A stretch of 64,000 nucleotides of DNA from Bacillota bacterium (GTDB lineage Bacteria > Bacillota > Clostridia > Acetivibrionales > DTU013), in assembly GCA_023412665.1 (NCBI GenBank), contig JAEZCA010000068.1:3651-67650 (forward strand), given 5' to 3'. Shown here one piece after another: positions 7,177 through 33,682 of the stretch. Made by a program: the position numbers and the translations under genes. The notes beneath the pieces are model-generated. The model was not told the DNA's origin. It was given only the letters and a program-made list of their open reading frames with translations, and searched no databases. Within the stretch, counting starts at the first letter, position 1; each line of letters starts with the position of its first letter.

Positions 7177-8766
7177 ATGAATGAAGATAATAAGAATCCA
7201 AATGATATCGAACAGCCGGGCAGGCCTATATACGGCCAACCGCAAGGGCTGATGCACAATCAGCACCAATTACCTGTCAAGCAACCATTGGTGTATAGTT
7301 CCGCAGACAAACTGCTGCTTGCAGGGGCACTCCTGTTCGGCATAATATTTGTAGGGCTCTTTTTTGACAACTATCCTGGCATTTCCGTTCCATTAATCAT
7401 AATTGTTTTTTATTCTCTGCTATTTACCTACACTAAGTCTGTACTGAAGAAGGATACCTGGTTCGGATGGTTTCTGTGTCTTCCGGTTTTTTTGCTTTCG
7501 TTGACATTCTTCCTCTTTGGAAACGAAGTGCTGATGATCCTCAATATTCTTGTGCTTCCGATGCTTATATTGCTGCAGACTATACTTGTGACAGGAGTGA
7601 ACAGCTACAAGTGGTTCAGCCCCGGAATAATACCGGATCTGTTTTTAAGTATGTTTGCCAGGTGCCTGATCCATATTCCCAAGCCATTCGGGATAATTTC
7701 ATCGATAGCCCGGACAAGGACAGGAAGCGGTGGTAAAAAGTCAGTCGGATCCAGAGTGCTTATTGGACTTATTATATCTGTACCTGTTCTGCTGGTGCTT
7801 CTCTTGCTTTTGTCATCGGCAGATATGGTTTTTGGGAAAATAGTTGAAAAGCTTCCCGACTTTCTTGAGAGTATTAATTTCAGCGAGCTTTTTTCCAGAA
7901 CTATTGTTGCATTATTTATATTTTTCATTTCCTTCAGCTATATATGGAGCCTCGGCCATGGTGAAAGATTTTTGGAAAACCGCACCGGACTGGTTTCTTC
8001 AAAAACTCCCGAGGAAAAAAGACGCTGGGACCCGGTCATATTTATTACTGTTACAGCAGCGGTCGACATACTTTATTTATTCTTTGTAGTAATACAGTTT
8101 ACTTACCTGTTTGGAAGATACGGACTACCTGAGGGTTTTACATATTCGGAGTATGCAAGAAACGGGTTCTCCGAGCTTGTGCTTGTATCGCTGCTTAATA
8201 TGGGGATGCTGGCAATCACGCTGACCTATACAAAAATTATGAATGGTTTCGGCGACAGAATATTCAGGCTTTTAAACTCGATAATGATCTGCTGCACCTT
8301 TGTCATGTTGTGCTCAGCCTATTACAGGATGTCGCTTTATGAGGCAGCATATGGGTTTACTTTTCTTCGCATCATGACCCAAGCCTTCATGATCTTTCTA
8401 TTCGTTTTATTCGTCATTACCATGGTAAGGGTTTGGAATGACCGTGTTCCACTGCTCAAACCCTATATCGCTGCTGCAGTGATCGCTTTTACGATCATTA
8501 ACTATATCAATGTAGATGCGGTGATAGCGCAGAAAAACATTGAAAGGTATCGTAAGACGGGGATAATTGATGTTCACTATTTCAACAGCCTTTCCAGCTC
8601 TGCTATCGATGAACTCATAGAGCTCTCCAACGACAGCGACCCGGAGGTTGCATCGGAGGCGGAGAAGATACTGGAGTCTAAAAAAATGTGGTTGTTGAGT
8701 AAAACGAAATGGCAATCATTTAATCTGGCTGATCACTATGCCAGAAAGGAAATGTCCAAGCAATGA
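7177..8766 (+). CDS. Large polytopic membrane protein (DUF4153/DUF4173-like)
   Basis: ORF 7159..8766. ATG 7177 lies 7 nt after AGGAGGG. More than 10 hydrophobic segments and a soluble C-terminal tail. The family assignment is tentative. Confidence 0.55.
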   Translation: MNEDNKNPNDIEQPGRPIYGQPQGLMHNQHQLPVKQPLVYSSADKLLLAGALLFGIIFVGLFFDNYPGISVPLIIIVFYSLLFTYTKSVLKKDTWFGWFLCLPVFLLSLTFFLFGNEVLMILNILVLPMLILLQTILVTGVNSYKWFSPGIIPDLFLSMFARCLIHIPKPFGIISSIARTRTGSGGKKSVGSRVLIGLIISVPVLLVLLLLLSSADMVFGKIVEKLPDFLESINFSELFSRTIVALFIFFISFSYIWSLGHGERFLENRTGLVSSKTPEEKRRWDPVIFITVTAAVDILYLFFVVIQFTYLFGRYGLPEGFTYSEYARNGFSELVLVSLLNMGMLAITLTYTKIMNGFGDRIFRLLNSIMICCTFVMLCSAYYRMSLYEAAYGFTFLRIMTQAFMIFLFVLFVITMVRVWNDRVPLLKPYIAAAVIAFTIINYINVDAVIAQKNIERYRKTGIIDVHYFNSLSSSAIDELIELSNDSDPEVASEAEKILESKKMWLLSKTKWQSFNLADHYARKEMSKQ

Positions 8767-8802
8767 TGTTATCATCCGGTTTTCCGGACTATAGCATTGT
8801 AC

Positions 8803-9294
8803 TCAGCTTATACCTGAGATCTTATTGAGCAATGTGAACAGAACAACAGCGGTATTTGATATACTGGCAAGGAATATTTGCGGCTTGTGCTTGTTCCTGT
8901 CGAAAATACCGCTGTTTTTTCCTATTTTCTTCTGAATGAAATAAAGCTGAAGCAATATGGAAAGTGCTGTAACGCCCTTGAGCAGAATGCTTTCGAGATA
9001 AAATGCGCAGTAACATAAAAATAGTATAATTATTAGATTGCATACGACGCTCAAGCCGGCCCCGAACATTTTCAGGTCTATATCCACCAGCTCTTCCAGT
9101 TCCTCCTCCAGCTCCTCGTCGACTTCCTTTTCCTCAAAACCGTTCCCTTTAGCAATATTATATATATTGGCAAATGATATTACTGTCAGTATCGTTGCGA
9201 TCACACCGAAAAAAATCTGATGATTCGCTGAGATAGTAATAACAGGGAATGCAAGTATTACTAAAAAAATTAATGTGCTGCCTCTGGATTGCAT
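8803..9294 (-). CDS. Membrane protein with acidic loop (unknown function)
   Basis: GGGAGA Shine-Dalgarno 8 nt upstream. Four hydrophobic segments. Loop EEKEVDEELEEELEELVD. Confidence 0.5.
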   Translation of the reverse strand: MQSRGSTLIFLVILAFPVITISANHQIFFGVIATILTVISFANIYNIAKGNGFEEKEVDEELEEELEELVDIDLKMFGAGLSVVCNLIIILFLCYCAFYLESILLKGVTALSILLQLYFIQKKIGKNSGIFDRNKHKPQIFLASISNTAVVLFTLLNKISGIS

Positions 9295-25049: not shown

Positions 25050-25093
25050 ACTGAATGAAAAAACGAGTTTATTATAAAGGAGATGTACAGTTA

Positions 25094-25780
25094 ATGGCGG
25101 GGAAGCTTACGAAAGTAAATCTAAACGACTATAAGCCGCTAAGGGATGTAATTTTTGACACACTTAGAGAAGCCATAATCGTCGGCGAGCTTAAGCCGGG
25201 TGAAAGACTTATGGAGGTCAAGCTTGCGCAGAAGATGGGAGTGAGCAGGACACCTGTTCGTGAAGCAATCAGGAAGCTTGAGCTTGAGGGTCTTGTTGAG
25301 ATGCTGCCAAGAAAGGGAGCTCATATTGCCGATCTTTCCATCAAGGACATAATGGATGTGCTTGAGGTCCGTGCGACGCTGGATGGACTGGCGTCTTCGT
25401 TGTCGGCATCGCGCATAAGCGACGATGAGATAAAGGAGCTCAAGCATGTGCATAGTCAGTTCGTCAATTATGTTGAGAAGGAAAATCTTCAGGGATCTAT
25501 CAAGAAGGACGTGGAGTTCCATGATATAATATACCGTTCATCAAGGAATGACAAGCTCATACAGATATCAAACAACCTCAGGGAGCAGATACAGAGGTTC
25601 AGGGTCATTTATATCAAGGATTACAGCAGTACCAGGGAGCTCATAAAGGAGCATATTGAGATCATAGATGCAATAACCGCCAGAGATTCCGCTGCTGCGA
25701 TGAGGTCTGCGCAATCACATATAAAGAAGCAGGAGGAAGCCATCACCAGGTCGGTAAAGAAGAACCGGATACCTGAATAA
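25094..25780 (+). CDS. GntR-family (FadR/FCD subfamily) transcriptional regulator
   Basis: GERLMEVKLAQKMGVSRTPVREAIRKLELEGLV winged HTH, followed by an all-helical FCD-like C-terminal domain. ATG 25094 follows AAAGGAG. Confidence 0.85.
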   Translation: MAGKLTKVNLNDYKPLRDVIFDTLREAIIVGELKPGERLMEVKLAQKMGVSRTPVREAIRKLELEGLVEMLPRKGAHIADLSIKDIMDVLEVRATLDGLASSLSASRISDDEIKELKHVHSQFVNYVEKENLQGSIKKDVEFHDIIYRSSRNDKLIQISNNLREQIQRFRVIYIKDYSSTRELIKEHIEIIDAITARDSAAAMRSAQSHIKKQEEAITRSVKKNRIPE

Positions 25781-26082: not shown

Positions 26083-26208
26083 ATTGTTTGCATTTTTTTA
26101 TAAAAAAGAACGTGAAAAAGCAGGAAAATTCTCCTCCAAATATATTTTTATTTTATACTGCAGTGTTTTAAAACATTTGAAGGTATTCAACGTATAATTG
26201 TTTGCATT
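26083..26208. promoter_or_regulatory. Two exact copies of the 12-mer ATTGTTTGCATT in the copZ-like / AAA ATPase divergent region
   Basis: Copies at 26083-26094 and 26197-26208, same orientation. The second overlaps a TATAAT at 26193-26198. Confidence 0.35.
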
Positions 26209-26276
26209 GTATTTTTACAGCCGGAAATAATTACAAAGGAGCCGGCCCGGCAAACAGCAAAACAGGAGGGATTATT

Positions 26277-27911
26277 GTGTCATCCGGAGAATTTTGGTAC
26301 GACAGTTTTTTAAGCAAATACAAATCAGGTATTTCCCATGAGTTTCTGTTTTATTTTAATGTTCGCGATCTGGTGGACAACTACAGGTACATGGACAGAT
26401 ACTTCTATGAGGAATTCATCAAGAAGAGAGGCTTTGGTATCGTTGCCTTTTACGATATATCAAGAGGTCTTACCTTTCTGGATGCAGGCATGGAAAAAGA
26501 GTTCAATATTATTACCTCCAATGAAGCTGCCAATTTAATGAATGCAATGCCGTCCAGGCTGTTCCCTCATATCGATAAGGCGCTGAAGAATACCAAGATG
26601 GTGCTTTTTATCGATCATGTGGAAAAGATTATCCCGTCAGGTGATATTGCCAGTATGTCCCTTGAGGAAAGGGTATCCTTGATTTGGATCTGCGAGTGGT
26701 CAGTCAGTGCCAAGATATCCTCTGTAGGCAGCTGCATACTGATGCTATCCGATAATCTTGCCGATGTGAGCCGGGAGCTGCTCAAATCCTCATACAGGAT
26801 CGAGCCGATATTTGTCGGACTGCCAAATGAGGCGCAGCGCAAGGATTATATAGAATATTTGCTCAAGGACAACGGCGTAAAGACGGAAATAACCGCAGAC
26901 GAATTCGCAAAGCTATCCTCCGGGCTGAGTAAAAAATCGATAAAAGACATAAAACTGAAATCAGAGGCCGAAGATATACCCATAAGCTTCGAGTTCATAA
27001 AGGAGAAGAAGCATTCCGTGCTGCAGAAGGAGTATGGCGATGTGCTGGAGTTCATATACCCGGAACTGGACTTTGAAAACATCGGCGGTATGGAAAAGGC
27101 AAAGGAATATTTGCTGAAGAACATCGTAAAGCCCATAATGAAGGGAGACCTCAGGAGGGTTCCCATGGGAATACTGCTTTGCGGACCTTCCGGAACAGGT
27201 AAGACACTTCTGGTCAATGCCCTTGCAAGGGCCAGCGGATTTAATTGCGTGAAGATCGATATGTCAAGGATCCTTGGCCAGTATGTAGGTGAAAGCGAGA
27301 AGAATTTTAAGAAGTGTCTGCTTGGCGCTCAATCACAGCACCCGGTAATAGTGTTCGTGGACGAATTGGATACGGCTTTCCGAAGAGGAGACAGCGGGGA
27401 CAGCGGTGTGAGCAGGAACATATTCAGTGAATTTTTGCAGTTCACCGGTAATACAAATAATAGGGGCAAGGTTATTTTTATTGCAGCAACCAACAGACCG
27501 GATCTGATAGATCCTGCTTTGAAAAGAGCCGGAAGGTTCGACAAAAAGATACCGATACTGCTGCCTGATGCCAGGGAACGAGCGGATATTTTCAGGATCA
27601 TTACAAAGAAATACGGATTTGATACGGATATAGAGGACTTCATGCCTTTTGCGCAGGAGACGGAGAACTATACCGGTGCAGAGATAGAGACCGTTGTCAG
27701 GAAGGCTTATGAGCTGGCTAACGAGGACGAGACCGATAATAATATCCTTACGGCTCAAATAATGTCGGAGGCAATAATGAGATGCCGGCCAAGCACCCAG
27801 CAGGTTCAGTTCATGACAATGCTGGCCATCGATGAATGCGATGACAAGGATTTATTGCCTGAGAAATATAAAGGGCTCCTGGACACAAAAAACCTGTCCG
27901 AGGATAGATGA
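26277..27911 (+). CDS. Classical-clade AAA+ ATPase (CDC48/Vps4/FtsH-like ATPase domain) with Walker-less N-terminal domain
   Basis: ORF 26202..27911. GTG 26277 lies 6 nt after ACAGGAGGG. Walker A GPSGTGKT, Walker B VIVFVDELD, second region of homology ATNRPDLIDPALKRAGRFD. The N-terminal roughly 280 aa lacks a P-loop. Confidence 0.85.
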   Translation: MSSGEFWYDSFLSKYKSGISHEFLFYFNVRDLVDNYRYMDRYFYEEFIKKRGFGIVAFYDISRGLTFLDAGMEKEFNIITSNEAANLMNAMPSRLFPHIDKALKNTKMVLFIDHVEKIIPSGDIASMSLEERVSLIWICEWSVSAKISSVGSCILMLSDNLADVSRELLKSSYRIEPIFVGLPNEAQRKDYIEYLLKDNGVKTEITADEFAKLSSGLSKKSIKDIKLKSEAEDIPISFEFIKEKKHSVLQKEYGDVLEFIYPELDFENIGGMEKAKEYLLKNIVKPIMKGDLRRVPMGILLCGPSGTGKTLLVNALARASGFNCVKIDMSRILGQYVGESEKNFKKCLLGAQSQHPVIVFVDELDTAFRRGDSGDSGVSRNIFSEFLQFTGNTNNRGKVIFIAATNRPDLIDPALKRAGRFDKKIPILLPDARERADIFRIITKKYGFDTDIEDFMPFAQETENYTGAEIETVVRKAYELANEDETDNNILTAQIMSEAIMRCRPSTQQVQFMTMLAIDECDDKDLLPEKYKGLLDTKNLSEDR

Positions 27912-28116
27912 TACAGTGGATCGGCAGGGTTTGCTTGTGGAAATCATGTTTTATTCTTGGAAGCACTGCTGCAGACCTCACAGTCGGTTCGAGGCGACTG
28001 GAAAGACCCGTGAGACAGGACTTCAAGGTAGAACTCATTTGTCGGCAGAATCGATCCACAGGGGTGGGTGCTTTAAAACATGATCGGAATAAGCAACCCT
28101 GCCGACTCTGTACAGT
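27912..28116 (+). ncRNA. Candidate structured RNA / long imperfect hairpin (class unknown)
   Basis: Long-range pairing read directly: 27912-16/28108-12, 27922-31/28095-104 (10 bp), 27933-36/28091-94, 27943-53/28074-84 (11 bp), 27961-66/28068-73 and 27969-76/28041-48. Inner hairpin CAGTCG-N8-CGACTG. Strand not determined. Confidence 0.4.
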
Positions 28117-28234
28117 TAAGGCAGGAGAGTAGTTTTGCCGAGACATTAATCCTTTACATCGGGCATTATTTATTATAAATTAAATATATACAGAAATGGC
28201 GGAACGTAACAATAAATAAAGGGAGGCAGTTAAT

Positions 28235-28963
28235 ATGGGTTTTTTCAGTAGACTTGGCGCTTTGATAAGAGGTTTCTTCGGCAGTTTGCTGGGGGGCGTG
28301 GAAGAAAATAATCCGGAATTACTATTTGAGGATATCAAGATGCAGATAGACAGGGCCAGAAAAGAAGCGGAGCAGCAGATCCTTGAGATTCAGACAAATG
28401 CCGAGATGATCAAGATCGAAATGCGGAATGCGGAAAAGAATCTTTTCACTGTAAAGGCAAGAGTTGAAGCTGCTCAGAAGACAGGAGACAAGGAGCTTCT
28501 GATTGAGCTGCTCATGCATGAGGAAGAATATCAGGCAACCTATGAGACCCATAAGGCCACCTATGATACTGCAATGGCTGAAGTGGCAAAGATCAGGGAG
28601 GACTACAAAATATTCGAGTCTGAAATGAGCGCCAAGCTCAATGAATTAAAGACTTTGAAATCCCAGGCAAAAATGGCTCAGCTCAGGGAGAATATCAACT
28701 CCGTGAATGCCAGATATACTTCAAGGAACAATACAGTCGGCAGTGTAAACGAGAGCATGGACAGGGCAAGAGAGCTTGTCAACAAAAAGACTGCCCGCGC
28801 CAATGCAGTGGAATCTCTTGGGGATACAAATATGGATCTGAAGCTCAAGAGGCTTGACATGAACTCTGCAAGGGATAGGGCGAAGGCAAGGGCTGAAGCG
28901 CTCCTTGGCAGCGAGCAGGGCTTTGAGGTAAAGGAAAAGACAGAAAACAAGGTATCACAGTAA
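28235..28963 (+). CDS. pspA: PspA/IM30-family protein (ESCRT-III superfamily)
   Basis: MGFFSRLGALIRGFFGSLLGGVEENNPELL resembles the amphipathic PspA N-terminus. The remainder is continuous coiled coil. AGGGAGG Shine-Dalgarno. Confidence 0.85.
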   Translation: MGFFSRLGALIRGFFGSLLGGVEENNPELLFEDIKMQIDRARKEAEQQILEIQTNAEMIKIEMRNAEKNLFTVKARVEAAQKTGDKELLIELLMHEEEYQATYETHKATYDTAMAEVAKIREDYKIFESEMSAKLNELKTLKSQAKMAQLRENINSVNARYTSRNNTVGSVNESMDRARELVNKKTARANAVESLGDTNMDLKLKRLDMNSARDRAKARAEALLGSEQGFEVKEKTENKVSQ

Positions 28964-29028
28964 ATGAAACCAGTACAAATTGGTGTAGCAGGTAAAGGGT
29001 TATTATTTGGGAATGGTGGTTTGAGCTT

Positions 29029-29844
29029 ATGAGAGCAAGAATGGTTTTGAGCGCGTTATTCAAATTGAGAAACATAGGAATACTGGCTGCGGCTTTGATC
29101 CTGGCAGCTCTTTTAAGCGACCCCACGGCATTGCCCAACATGTTTGGAATAAATGGCGCACTGCCTGACTCTCTAACTGTTACGGGAAGTATTGCAGTCT
29201 ATATGGTATTTGTCATTCAGACTCTTCTCAGTAAAAAGTTCCATACCGAATTCAACCAGAAGGAAAAGTTCAGGAACATAAGAGAGCTGAACAGGCTGGC
29301 CAACAGGCTTTCTTCAGAGGCCAGAAGAAATACCAACAACACCTACATGCAAAAGCTCAGGAAGGTAATAAACGACAAGAACGATATTTTTACTTCCTAC
29401 TCAACAGGAGAGCCAAGCTATCTGAAGGAAAAAATAGTTGAGCAGACGCTGAACCTGGTGATAGCTTATCTGAAGCTGCTCAACAACTTCTGTATAAGGA
29501 GCCGGGAGCTCAGCAGCGTGGATGTGGGCGCCGTATCAGCCAGGATAAACAACAACTCGAGAAAGCTCAGCTTTGCCAAGGACGCAAGGATGGCCGAGGA
29601 TGTCCGCAAAATCATCGAAATGGATGAGAAGCTGATAGGCAGGCTGAAGGAAGAGAAGAAGGATCTGGAGAGGATAAGTGCCAAGCTTGATTACATGGAA
29701 AGCACTGTGAACATGTTCAAGCACCAGATCATGTCCAGCGTCGAAAACGAGGATATGCTCGAACAACTGGAAACAGCGGTAAATGAAGCTGAAGCCCTTG
29801 ACGCGGTGCTTGAGGACAGGCGCAGGAACAAGCTAAGGATGTAA
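29029..29844 (+). CDS. Membrane-anchored coiled-coil protein (possibly XpaC/TelA-like)
   Basis: Two N-terminal hydrophobic segments (IGILAAALILAALL; VTGSIAVYMVFVIQTLL), then about 190 aa of helical or coiled-coil sequence. Starts 65 nt after pspA. Confidence 0.5.
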   Translation: MRARMVLSALFKLRNIGILAAALILAALLSDPTALPNMFGINGALPDSLTVTGSIAVYMVFVIQTLLSKKFHTEFNQKEKFRNIRELNRLANRLSSEARRNTNNTYMQKLRKVINDKNDIFTSYSTGEPSYLKEKIVEQTLNLVIAYLKLLNNFCIRSRELSSVDVGAVSARINNNSRKLSFAKDARMAEDVRKIIEMDEKLIGRLKEEKKDLERISAKLDYMESTVNMFKHQIMSSVENEDMLEQLETAVNEAEALDAVLEDRRRNKLRM

Positions 29845-29870: not shown

Positions 29871-29912
29871 AAGGGACGGGAAATTATCAGAAATGATTTC
29901 GCGCCCCTTTTT
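29871..29912 (+). terminator. Rho-independent terminator after the pspA two-gene unit
   Basis: AAGGGACGGGAAAT ... ATTTCGCGCCCCTT with two mismatches, followed by TTTT. Confidence 0.55.
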
Positions 29913-30001: not shown

Positions 30002-30379
30002 ATGTCAGTACATTGTGGTGTCGATATAATCGAGATAGACAGGGTGAAAAAATCTGTTGATGAGCTTGAAAGCTTCAGAAGCAGGGTTTTCACAGAGAAA
30101 GAGATAGCATACTGCGAGGGTAGGAACAAAGCAAAATACGAGAGCTATGCAGCCAGATTCGCCGCGAAGGAGGCAGTTCTGAAAGCTCTGGGGACTGGTC
30201 TTTCCGACGGAGTCGAGTGGAAGCACATAGAGATCAGCAATGATGAAAGGGGAAAGCCTGTGGTGGCTTTGACACACAGAGCCCTTGACATCTTTCGGGA
30301 AATGAATGGGAAGAGCATCGATATAAGCCTTTCCCACTGCAGTACATATGCAGTGGCATATGCAGTGATAGAAAATTAA
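30002..30379 (+). CDS. acpS: Holo-[acyl-carrier-protein] synthase
   Basis: 125 aa. GVDIIEIDRV, RFAAKEAVLKALG and ISLSHC motifs. Confidence 0.9.
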   Translation: MSVHCGVDIIEIDRVKKSVDELESFRSRVFTEKEIAYCEGRNKAKYESYAARFAAKEAVLKALGTGLSDGVEWKHIEISNDERGKPVVALTHRALDIFREMNGKSIDISLSHCSTYAVAYAVIEN

Positions 30380-30392
30380 GAGGTGGATATAC

Positions 30393-31493
30393 ATGAGGGT
30401 CAGGCTGCTCCAGTTCGGAGATCTTCATCTGGATGCCCCTTTCACATCGTTGGGCGATATTGAAGGGAGGCCTCATCAAAGGAGGCAGGATCTGAAGAGG
30501 ACACTGTCGAGGATAATTGATCTTGCGCTGAGTGAAAATCCGGATATCGTGCTTGTCTGCGGAGACCTGTATGAGCATGCCTATACGGCTAAAGGCTCAA
30601 TCAACTATGTATGCGCTCAATTTGAGAGGATACCGGACATACCTGTTTTGATGATACCCGGAAACCATGATCCGCAGGTACCCGGCTCCTTTTACAGCGA
30701 CCACGGGTGGCCGTCCAATGTGCATGTGCTTGGTACAGGTGATATGTTCGAGCATTCTCCCTCAGGCACCAGAGTTTTCGGCGGAGCTGCCCCGGAAACA
30801 ACAGATCCGTCCTATATCAATATATTGATGCATCATGGGACATTGGACATGCCCTTTAACTCCAATGCCTTTCAGCCCATATCCGGAAGGGAGATCCAAG
30901 AGCGGGGTTTCGACTACTGCGCTTTGGGACACTTCCACTCAAGGATATCCGGCGCAGGACCAGGCGGGACCATTTTTAATGCGGGCAGTCCCGAGCCCCT
31001 TGGCTTTGATGAAGAGGGAGCTCATGGCGTGTATATATCCGAGATTGAAAAGGAACCTGGGAGGAAAAGCACTGTAAGCTCAAATTTCATCAAGCTTTGC
31101 TCAAGGAGAGCTGTCACCCTGGAGGTCGGGATAAGCGGATGCCTGAGCAATGAGCAGGCAGCAGGCCTGATTGAAGCTGAAATAGGAAGAGCGGGAAGCA
31201 GTGAAGATCTTTTCAGGGTCATTCTAAAAGGCCGCATACCCTCGGATATAAGGATAGACGCAGAGGCTGTCGCAGAGCAGACAGCTGATAAGGCATTCTA
31301 TATAAAAATAATTGATGAAACCATCCCGGACTATGACCTGGAGCAAATTTCCCGTGAACAGGGACTAAAGGGGCTTTTTACCAGAAAAATGCTCGAGAGG
31401 GCAGCCAAAGAGGACCAGGAAGGGGCAAGGCTGGTCATGCAGGCGCTTTATTACGGACTGGAGGCTATTGACGAGGGAAAGGTATGCGTATAG
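30393..31493 (+). CDS. SbcD/Mre11-family metallophosphoesterase (YhaO/SbcF-like)
   Basis: FGDLHLD, CGDLYEH and PGNHD calcineurin-like motifs. The stop overlaps the next gene's start by 10 nt. Confidence 0.85.
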   Translation: MRVRLLQFGDLHLDAPFTSLGDIEGRPHQRRQDLKRTLSRIIDLALSENPDIVLVCGDLYEHAYTAKGSINYVCAQFERIPDIPVLMIPGNHDPQVPGSFYSDHGWPSNVHVLGTGDMFEHSPSGTRVFGGAAPETTDPSYINILMHHGTLDMPFNSNAFQPISGREIQERGFDYCALGHFHSRISGAGPGGTIFNAGSPEPLGFDEEGAHGVYISEIEKEPGRKSTVSSNFIKLCSRRAVTLEVGISGCLSNEQAAGLIEAEIGRAGSSEDLFRVILKGRIPSDIRIDAEAVAEQTADKAFYIKIIDETIPDYDLEQISREQGLKGLFTRKMLERAAKEDQEGARLVMQALYYGLEAIDEGKVCV

Positions 31494-33682
31494 AGAGGGT
31501 CGAGATCAATGGGTTTGCTAAAATAAGGAACCTGGTGATTGCTCCGGGCAGCGGACTTAATGTCATTTACGGGGCTAATGAGGCTGGAAAGTCTACTGTC
31601 CAGAGGTTCATCAGAGCAATGCTTTACGGGGTCAGGAACGGACGTGAGCCGTCCGGGCTTCCTGCTGCGCAGAAAAGATTCATGCCATGGGACGGCGCTC
31701 CATATGGCGGCTCTATTATATATTCTCTTGATAATGGATCAACAATTCGAGCTGAAAGAAACTTTGATAAGAATACCGTTCGTATATTTGACGGCAGTTA
31801 TAATGATATATCAGGGACATTCAGACTTGGTAAAGACAAGCTGCCTATGTTTGCTGACGAGCATCTGGGAATGGATGAAGCAACGTTTACAAGGACGGCC
31901 TTCATTGGTCAGATGGATGTCAGGATCGGCAGCAGCGGTTCGTCGGAACTGGCAGCAAGGCTTGCCAATGCTAAGGATACAGGGTCTGAAGGGTTGTCCT
32001 TCCAGAGAGCTGAGGCTGCTCTGGCAAATGCTCTGAAAAACAGGATAGGCACTGAGAGAACCAGGACACAGCCGCTGGACAGGCTTGAAGCGAGGCTCAG
32101 GCAGCTCGAAGAAGAGCATGCCAGGCTGACATACCGGCAGAAGCAAAGGCAGAGCCTGAAAGATGAGCTGTCGGATGTAAAAGCCCGGCTTGCCGGCTTG
32201 GACGCGCAGGAGCAGTATCTGGCAATAGTTGAAGAGCTGATCGATACAAGAAAGAAGATAGATGCAGGCATAAAGAAAGAGACAAATCTCACAGAGACAG
32301 CCGCGCTGCTTAAGGACATGGACAGGAAGCTGTCCGGACTGCTGGAGCAGGAACGTGCCGCTGCGGAGAATACAGGCCGAAACGGTGGTACCAGCCGAGA
32401 ATCCGGATATAGCGCCGATAGACCACAAAACAGCCGACGCTTTGAGAAGGTCAAGACTTTCCGCTTTGGTCCGGCAGTCCCGCTGCTCTGTTTTGCCGCT
32501 GCGCTGATATCGGGGGCGTTGCTGGTGTCCGCATTGACATCAGGGAGTCGGCCTGACGTACCGGCATCAATGCTTTTGTATGGGCTTGTTATGCTTATTT
32601 CCGCTATTGTGGGAACTATTTCCCTTGTTAAGGGAATGAAGGCCATGTATAGCCGAACCGGAAATGTATCAGGCGGACTGACCGGCGCATATCACGGAAG
32701 CATAGGAGATGACGGCAGCACCGTTGATTTGGCAAATACAGGTGATACTATATTGAGACCGGATGCCTTGAAGGAAAGGGCTGAGGGACTAGCCTTGCTG
32801 AAGCGGAATGCATTGAACAACGCTTCTTTGATATGCGGCAGCACGATGAGCCGCACTGAAGACGTGGAAAGGGCCTTGAGTCATACACGGACTGAGTTGG
32901 AGGAATTAAGCGCCAGACTACAGCGGAGAATTGAAGATGCAGGTAAGATTAAACAGCCTGCAGACAGCTATTTTACGGGGAAGGATCTGGATATGGTTAT
33001 CTATGATACCGATATATCGAGCCTGGAATCAGTGCTGAGGGCTGAAATGGAAAGCGTCAGGCAGTCTGTGCTGAGTATGTCGCTGAGGGAAAAATACTGT
33101 GAAGGAATGGCTGACGATGACAAAGAGAGCGCTTATGAACTGCAGCGTGTGGTAGAAGAAACCGTTGCGGTAAAGGAGAAAATCGCGTATCTTAGAAATA
33201 AGGCAAATGCAATCAAGCTTGCTCATGAGGTCCTATTGGAAGCCGGCATGGAAATCAGGCGTGATTTTGCTCCCGGTCTGAATAGCAGAATGAGCAGTAT
33301 AATAGCGGGTATAACAGGACAAAGGTATACGGATCTCAGAGGGGATGAGGCTCTGTTGCTCAATGCAGCCGCACCGGAATACGGGGAAGTTAAAAATGTA
33401 CTCCTGCTCAGCGGTGGTACGGCTGATCAGATGTACCTGGCGATGAGGCTTGCCATGACAGGTCTTTTGACTAAGGGGTCCGAGAGCCTGCCGTTAATAA
33501 TGGATGAAGTATTTTCTCAGTTTGATGACAACAGGACTGCTCTTGCGTTAAAATATTTACATAATGAGTACAGAGGCAGCCAGATATTCATTTTTACCTG
33601 CAAACAGCGGGAGGTGGAGCTGGCGAGGCAGATTTACGGCGACAGAATGAATTTTGTGGAGTTGGGGCATGAAGATTTTTAA
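31484..33682 (+). CDS. SMC/SbcC-like ABC-type ATPase with internal transmembrane hairpin (YhaN/SbcE-like)
   Basis: Walker A GANEAGKST. Signature LSGGTADQMYLAMRLAM. Walker B LPLIMDEVFSQFD. Coiled coils flank two hydrophobic helices (AVPLLCFAAALISGALLVSAL; MLLYGLVMLISAIVGTISLV). Confidence 0.8.
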   Translation: MRIERVEINGFAKIRNLVIAPGSGLNVIYGANEAGKSTVQRFIRAMLYGVRNGREPSGLPAAQKRFMPWDGAPYGGSIIYSLDNGSTIRAERNFDKNTVRIFDGSYNDISGTFRLGKDKLPMFADEHLGMDEATFTRTAFIGQMDVRIGSSGSSELAARLANAKDTGSEGLSFQRAEAALANALKNRIGTERTRTQPLDRLEARLRQLEEEHARLTYRQKQRQSLKDELSDVKARLAGLDAQEQYLAIVEELIDTRKKIDAGIKKETNLTETAALLKDMDRKLSGLLEQERAAAENTGRNGGTSRESGYSADRPQNSRRFEKVKTFRFGPAVPLLCFAAALISGALLVSALTSGSRPDVPASMLLYGLVMLISAIVGTISLVKGMKAMYSRTGNVSGGLTGAYHGSIGDDGSTVDLANTGDTILRPDALKERAEGLALLKRNALNNASLICGSTMSRTEDVERALSHTRTELEELSARLQRRIEDAGKIKQPADSYFTGKDLDMVIYDTDISSLESVLRAEMESVRQSVLSMSLREKYCEGMADDDKESAYELQRVVEETVAVKEKIAYLRNKANAIKLAHEVLLEAGMEIRRDFAPGLNSRMSSIIAGITGQRYTDLRGDEALLLNAAAPEYGEVKNVLLLSGGTADQMYLAMRLAMTGLLTKGSESLPLIMDEVFSQFDDNRTALALKYLHNEYRGSQIFIFTCKQREVELARQIYGDRMNFVELGHEDF

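Follow-up and report, generated by a model that had tools for sequence, protein, structure and literature searches.

The 64,000-nucleotide stretch of DNA analysed here (the window) comes from a Bacillota bacterium of the order Acetivibrionales (DTU013 in GTDB; assembly GCA_023412665.1, contig JAEZCA010000068.1, positions 3,651 to 67,650 of the forward strand). It carries three same-strand genes, for an AAA+ ATPase, for a PspA/IM30 protein (pspA) and for a two-transmembrane protein encoded by what is called here the third gene, and an earlier note made from the sequence had proposed them as a candidate bacterial ESCRT-III/Vps4-like module. The link between the ATPase gene and pspA goes beyond local synteny, and it is probable that the two proteins are functionally coupled. 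The ATPase is a CDC48/p97-like type II tandem AAA+ protein whose first AAA domain (D1) is dead and whose second (D2) is a complete threading motor, and it does not belong to the Vps4/CdvC family. The earlier proposal therefore stands as regards linkage, found in three lineages, and falls as regards Vps4 membership, and any Vps4-like role of the ATPase is one of analogy.

Conservation of the linkage

Among 80 genome loci of the Acetivibrionales, with ATPases 72-97% identical to that of the window, pspA comes after the ATPase gene in 75 and the third gene is found in 73. The misses are contig ends, bar one locus with a >6-kb insertion in the spacer and both genes still on the contig. The wider neighbourhood (veg-LysM-ispE-gntR-copZ) is syntenic as a whole, and so adjacency within this order is by itself weak evidence. 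In the five loci of the Symbiobacteriaceae the ATPase gene is followed after a gap of ~25 bp by pspA, then by a gene for a PBP(NMT1)+OmpA protein and then by a homologue of the third gene, the identities to the window proteins being 28-32% for D1, ~50% for D2, 33-35% for PspA and 23-26% for the third gene. Two genomes of the Armatimonadota have an isolated pair in reversed order, pspA before the ATPase gene with a 37-bp gap, among unrelated neighbours and with the third gene absent. The PspA partners score 43.6 bits (Symbiobacteriaceae) and 64.4 bits (Armatimonadota) against PF04012. It is because the pair recurs in these two lineages, with other neighbours and another order, that the link is more than synteny, and the conserved linkage on which the earlier note had staked its idea is thus present. 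The short gaps in both lineages suggest that the two genes may be co-transcribed there. Two contigs labelled as metagenome-assembled genomes (MAGs) of Ignavibacteriales (L068) and Deltaproteobacteria (L079) are syntenic with the Acetivibrionales, at ~72-73% protein identity, and were probably placed in those MAGs by a binning error.

The features of the locus in the window are these:

26277..27911, plus strand: gene of the tandem AAA+ ATPase (544 residues; D1 about 1-250, D2 about 255-500)
28153..28181, plus strand: predicted sigma-70-type promoter of pspA, TTTACA-N17-TAAATT / TATAAAT (promoter scan)
28235..28963, plus strand: pspA (242 residues; PF04012 above gathering score, alignment)
28919..28948, plus strand: C-terminal tail motif of PspA, GFEVKEKTEN (conservation; candidate recognition tag for the ATPase)
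29029..29844, plus strand: third gene (271 residues; hydropathy, AlphaFold2 model, homologue families)
29871..29912, plus strand: intrinsic terminator-like hairpin with U-run (folding energy)

The ATPase

The open reading frame of the ATPase spans 26202..27911 on the plus strand, with a GTG start at 26277 and AGGAGGG just 5' of it, and the length of 544 residues is matched by hundreds of homologues; open reading frames and coordinates of all three genes agree with the places the earlier note had given them. Pfam AAA (PF00004) is found at residues 299-427 (E 1e-38) and AAA_lid_3 (PF17862) is also matched. Walker A (GPSGTGKT) lies at 303, Walker B (IVFVDE) at 358 and the second region of homology (SRH), TNRPDLIDPALKRAGR with arginine fingers, at 405, and the pore loop reads YVG. 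D2 accordingly has everything by which a classical-clade unfoldase is recognised, namely Walker A and B, an aromatic pore loop 1, the SRH and AAA_lid_3, and the classical-clade signature claimed for the 544-residue protein (GPSGTGKT, VFVDE and SRH) is located in full.

The classical-clade active domain read earlier is sound, and it is not the only AAA domain. A motif scan of residues 1-250 finds neither Walker A nor Walker B, and this part of the AlphaFold2 model (pLDDT, the predicted local distance difference test, 89.4; alignment of 72 sequences) has an alpha/beta fold like that of AAA domains and superposes on Cdc48 D1. In Foldseek the model superposes near full length on the D1-D2 tandem of Cdc48/p97, NVL, Rix7 and AFG2 (530-570 aligned columns, TM-scores 0.62-0.68, E ~1e-25). 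By model and Foldseek the chain begins directly with D1, without an N-terminal double-psi-barrel substrate/adaptor domain, and it has a family-specific C-terminal helix pair whose family-invariant columns read ...FMTxLAxxECxDxDLLPxxY.

Quite where the protein belongs was judged from curated model scores and from the fold comparison, matches to PDB sequences being uninformative for this since two-domain targets score twice. The scores are 172 bits for CDC48 (171.6 against a cut-off of 802.65, TIGR01243), 155 for PAN, 132 for FtsH and 130 for CdvC (cut-off 650, NF041006), all far below the cut-offs. A Pfam scan of the ATPase finds no MIT domain and no Vps4_C (PF09336), and it is these two results, the CdvC score and the tandem fold that place the ATPase outside Vps4/CdvC.

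PspA and its C-terminal tail

The earlier reading of a PspA/IM30 protein holds, and the amphipathic N-terminal helix is probable. PF04012 (PspA_IM30) matches at 39.7 bits against a cut-off of 33.9, aligning residues 3-221 to profile positions 2-215 of 220, and the N-terminus, MGFFSRLGALIRGFFGSLLGG, is hydrophobic and amphipathic. A narrow PspA profile run against PDB sequences matched no PspA or Vipp1 entry, and the family assignment is that of Pfam.

All Acetivibrionales PspA proteins end in a linker and an invariant GFEVKEK(T-E-N), with G229-E234 invariant in the alignment; the tail peptide of the window is GFEVKEKTENKVSQ. The Symbiobacteriaceae PspA ends in RVVKEKTQN on a protein that is for the rest as diverged from the window's as given above, and it is a real result that the clades share this terminal peptide while the remainder of PspA has diverged. 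When one genome per species was scanned with a degenerate DNA pattern for the tail (185,579 species) there were 63 matches, 49 of them PspA C-termini, all in ATPase-linked clades, and 14 unrelated chance matches. Wherever the fetched DNA reaches far enough, the ATPase gene is upstream of the 49. It is plausible that the tail is a recognition tag for the ATPase. One relative (L067, 7688-8473) has the motif in triplicate (GFEVKEKNGNFEVKEKNEALEVKERNENK).

The third gene

As the earlier note had it, the third gene encodes a predicted two-transmembrane protein with a long helical domain, presumably cytoplasmic: hydropathy gives hydrophobic segments at residues 5-36 and 48-68, after which comes a conserved all-helical domain of ~200 residues (AlphaFold2 pLDDT 81.7). 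Its family has 318 matches, is confined to PspA-AAA loci and has no match in Pfam, NCBIfam, PADLOC or PHROGs; nothing was found among PDB sequences. A role in the module is supported because the gene is co-conserved with the ATPase-PspA dyad in both Bacillota lineages, and by analogy the product is a candidate membrane anchor or organiser.

Ravi and colleagues call the membrane-anchored partner of related operons a "divergent Snf7", and this is not reproduced for the third gene of the window. In a profile comparison made against PspA hhalign gave a probability of 0.1%, and Foldseek against the PDB gave no match at E <= 1e-3 and no ESCRT-III protein among the top 50 matches listed, both methods being weak on flexible helical proteins. 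The matches that Foldseek did return are weak, to designed helical repeats and BAR domains.

A proposed mechanism and its alternatives

The genes may well form a conserved envelope-stress module built around PspA. The ATPase would assemble as a hexamer, engage PspA via the invariant tethered tail GFEVKEKTEN and pull subunits out of membrane-bound PspA polymers, the polymer thereby being remodelled or recycled after stress, and the two-transmembrane helical protein would hold PspA in place on the membrane or nucleate it there, in the way that LiaI serves LiaH. Tail-directed extraction of PspA subunits from the polymer by the unfoldase is the best-supported mechanism, to which we give a little less than even credence. 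The broader view, of an independently arisen bacterial functional counterpart of the ESCRT-III/Vps4 cycle built from a CDC48-like motor, a VKEKT tag and a helical membrane organiser, is more tentative and seems somewhat doubtful. What counts for tail-directed extraction is a linkage that has survived deep divergence and rearrangement, the grouping of the PspA-linked Bacillota ATPases in one clade, a PspA tail shared between diverged clades and seen only on ATPase-linked PspA, and an intact D2 motor and pore loop with a fold match to the substrate-threading Cdc48/p97. Comparative genomics had moreover led others to the same inference (PMC11237479).

Several points weigh on the other side. Support for an action of the ATPase on PspA consists of genomic linkage and predicted structure, PspA is itself a weak ATPase, and there are proposals that other chaperones turn it over (PMC11746142). 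With its own predicted promoter and a 323-bp spacer, pspA in the window need not be transcribed together with the ATPase gene. Not every ATPase-linked PspA has the tail, that of the Armatimonadota ending in an acidic one without VKEKT, and the exclusivity of the motif is partly circular, the pattern of the scan having been derived from the same clades. The ATPase family is moreover not one of PspA partners. A search with the N-domain among 1.84 billion representatives gave 190 clusters (50% identity) at E <= 1e-10, nearly all of them proteins of 560-620 residues with the architecture of the window ATPase, and the whole Acetivibrionales group falls into one such cluster. All seven distant loci looked up singly, which represent six distinct proteins (Ammonifex, Desulfoscipio, metagenomic contigs), adjoin DUF3150 and not PspA, in a module of a DUF1257-like gene (~127 residues), a DUF2997-like gene (~70-85 residues), the ATPase gene and DUF3150, and further genome loci repeat the pattern. 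Because most members of the family adjoin DUF3150, PspA cannot be its general substrate or partner and the link belongs to sub-branches. In a neighbour-joining tree the Acetivibrionales ATPases and the Symbiobacteriaceae ATPases each have 100% bootstrap; these two groups, the PspA-linked ATPases of the Bacillota, come together in a single clade inside the DUF3150-linked sequences, with a bootstrap of only 46%.

It is unlikely, if far from negligible, that PspA regulates the ATPase or serves it as an adaptor, and is not its substrate. As a regulator it would keep the ATPase inactive until membrane stress, in the manner of E. coli PspA on the AAA+ protein PspF, and as an adaptor it would recruit the unfoldase to damaged membrane, where other membrane proteins would be extracted or refolded in a quality control of the Msp1, FtsH or CDC48 type. 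The linkage data fit this equally, PspA is known to bind and control an AAA+ protein (PMC7619361), the conserved tail could just as well be a docking peptide, and DUF3150 partners elsewhere in the family mean that the motor is not intrinsically PspA-specific. However, neither a DNA-binding nor any other output domain is present in the ATPase, the locus encodes no protease partner, and no alternative substrate candidate is conserved in all three lineages, the third gene failing in Armatimonadota.

That the ATPase is an assembly chaperone, priming or loading PspA or the third protein into a membrane polymer rather than dismantling it, appears improbable. Associations of PspA with AAA+ proteins have been read as chaperone-like assembly of sub-membrane complexes (PMC11237479), CDC48-like motors can be segregases that activate partners, and linkage data say nothing on the direction in which the ATPase acts; yet PspA homologues self-assemble unaided in vitro (PMC11746142) and an intact threading pore loop suits extraction better than loading. 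A lack of any coupling, with the ATPase a domesticated member of the mobile-element DUF1257-DUF2997-AAA-DUF3150 family that has an unrelated role and stands beside pspA by inherited synteny, would agree with the block synteny in Acetivibrionales, the separate promoter of pspA and the dominance of the DUF3150-type context, but is improbable given an adjacency that recurs with quite different neighbours and order, a pair that persists while flanking genes come and go, and a third gene and PspA tail that co-occur with the ATPase.

Relation to known systems

A functional connection between such an ATPase and PspA has already been predicted from comparative genomics, and the locus is of this predicted, uncharacterised kind. 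Ravi and colleagues (PMC11237479; bioRxiv 2020, mSystems 2024) reported that bacterial PspA sometimes co-occurs with a two-AAA+ protein of which the N-terminal AAA+ is inactive, and suggested for the dyad an ATP-dependent membrane remodelling comparable to Snf7/Vps4. Their example, Clo1100_0028 of Clostridium sp. BNL1100 (AEY64320.1/AEY64321.1; GNTR-HTH → Inactive-AAA+AAA → PspA → ACET), is orthologous to the locus of the window: it belongs to the same bacterial order, its architecture does not differ, and the genes for GntR, inactive AAA+AAA and PspA follow one another in the same way. It differs in the acetyltransferase, which is also present in the Ruminiclostridium-type loci examined here and absent from the window; in relatives (L030, L036, L039, L066, L070; about 8465-9060) a GNAT acetyltransferase gene lies between pspA and the third gene. 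The Symbiobacteriaceae loci correspond to a longer operon type that they describe, in which a PBP+OmpA protein and a helical protein anchored in the membrane are also encoded. The present analysis adds to that work that PspA has a conserved tail and pspA a promoter of its own, that there are sister modules with DUF3150, and how the ATPases fall into clades. A literature search found no experimental study of the PspA-tandem-AAA dyad and no usable expression data for the PspA or the ATPase of Acetivibrio thermocellus.

In common with Vps4/CdvC and ESCRT-III the window has a classical-clade AAA+ unfoldase beside an ESCRT-III-superfamily polymer with a conserved C-terminal peptide, and the analogy proposed is one of function, in subunit extraction and recycling. 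Unlike Vps4, the window ATPase is without MIT, beta-domain and C-terminal helix and has two AAA folds and not one, and the tail motif of PspA is unrelated to the MIT-interacting motif (MIM) sequences of ESCRT-III. From this comparison we infer that a Vps4-type job may have been reached by a different AAA+ lineage, the likeness to Vps4 being convergent and not orthologous. The D1-D2 tandem is shared with CDC48/p97/VAT, NVL/Rix7 and AFG2, also the best sequence-model matches, whereas in contrast to CDC48/p97/VAT the N-terminal double-psi barrel is lacking, D1 has no Walker A/B and there is a family-specific C-terminal extension. In proteobacteria the AAA+ protein PspF is genetically and physically coupled to PspA, which inhibits it; PspF is however an NtrC-type enhancer-binding protein with a DNA-binding domain, unlike the window ATPase. 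In Bacillus the small membrane protein LiaI anchors the PspA homologue LiaH, which is the role proposed for the third gene, although its product does not resemble LiaI, PspB or PspC (no Pfam matches).

These loci bear on the question of how the bacterial ESCRT-III polymers, PspA and Vipp1, are dismantled. A Vps4-like ATPase appears to be absent from bacteria according to a 2025 review (PMC7619361) and is likewise said to be absent in PMC10936438, and structural work on PspA invokes unknown chaperones (PMC11746142). If the proposed extraction were true it would contradict such statements that bacteria have no Vps4-type regulation, and would make ATP-driven ESCRT-III recycling a case of convergent evolution. 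The locus is a real candidate for the "missing" bacterial counterpart of Vps4. It is also a good experimental entry point, being of a type that forms a compact two- or three-protein system in cultivable cellulolytic clostridia, with a mutable candidate recognition motif on PspA.

The DUF1257-DUF2997-AAA-DUF3150 modules, on which essentially no literature was found, have the same two-domain ATPase family (N-domain E 1e-20 to 1e-33) with the same C-terminal motif, and differ in having other partners and no PspA. Their neighbours (L081-L088, L108, L115-L120, L123) include ArdC-N, SSB, ImmA/HTH, PIN, SNF2 and NurA/HerA genes, a gene content resembling that of mobile elements. The idea that DUF3150 is a concealed PspA-like partner, which would have united the family, was rejected, the DUF3150 profile having no similarity to that of PspA (hhalign probability 0.2%). 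An origin in defence systems was also discarded, PADLOC giving only partial IetA and TRIP13 matches to the AAA core and none for PspA or the third gene, as was one in phages, PHROGs having no match for the N-domain or the third gene; AAA relatives in cultured phages are single-domain only. Intein/Hint insertions occur in several family members (P0294, P0440, P0268, P0305), and that of P0294 interrupts the active domain in its Walker A loop.

Transcription and the spacer

The packing of the three genes is not tight. The 323-bp spacer between the ATPase gene and pspA in the window, against a median of 122 bp (range 64-325) in Acetivibrionales, holds an element bounded by inverted repeats as well as the conserved pspA promoter, and the third gene starts 65 bp 3' of pspA. 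The promoter-like box, TTTACA-N17-TATAAAT, persists in 55 of 75 Acetivibrionales loci, among them loci with diverged flanks, and because of it pspA and the third gene probably form a transcription unit of their own. This unit is closed by a predicted terminator, the hairpin with a U-run at 29871-29912 (folding energy -17 kcal/mol, z -3.2), in agreement with the terminator placed at 29871 before. To judge from this arrangement the ATPase gene is probably expressed separately from, or additionally to, that unit. An own promoter for pspA would suit a polymer that is inducible and made in quantity, with few copies of the enzyme that serves it. The promoter overlaps a near-perfect AT-rich palindrome, ATTTATTATAAAT (window 28160-28185; equivalents in L001-L064), which could be an operator.

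The element in the spacer is a segment of ~186 bp (window 27919-28104) flanked by imperfect inverted repeats of ~32 bp, TCGGCAGGGTTTGCTT…CATGTTTTA. The closest relative (97% identity; L001, 7640-7826) has the segment at the same site in reversed orientation, and the other relatives do not have it. No further copy was found in the window, in 229 other loci or in JGI metagenome contigs. Just upstream of the pspA promoter, it is a candidate invertible switch or small mobile element. As RNA it would fold strongly (-90 kcal/mol, z -4.6), and no Rfam family matches the 323-bp spacer, which leaves the idea of an RNA element without support. On contig JBLMYQ010000082.1 (L079 / L204) an insertion of >6 kb falls precisely in the interval from the ATPase stop codon to pspA, and since this and the element of the window share the spacer, an insertion hot spot is suggested.

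Neighbouring genes

Immediately 5' of the module (25055-25780) is a gene for a GntR/FCD regulator, which most relatives have in the syntenic position. In some relatives genes for a FapA-domain and a GAF-domain protein are found 3' of the third gene (L003, 9619-11211; L033, 11116-13044), which is not so in the window. Downstream of the module there (30002-33682) come acpS, a calcineurin-like phosphoesterase and a SbcC/Rad50-like ATPase with internal hydrophobic segments, the last two making up a YhaO/YhaN-like pair; these genes are syntenic in many relatives.

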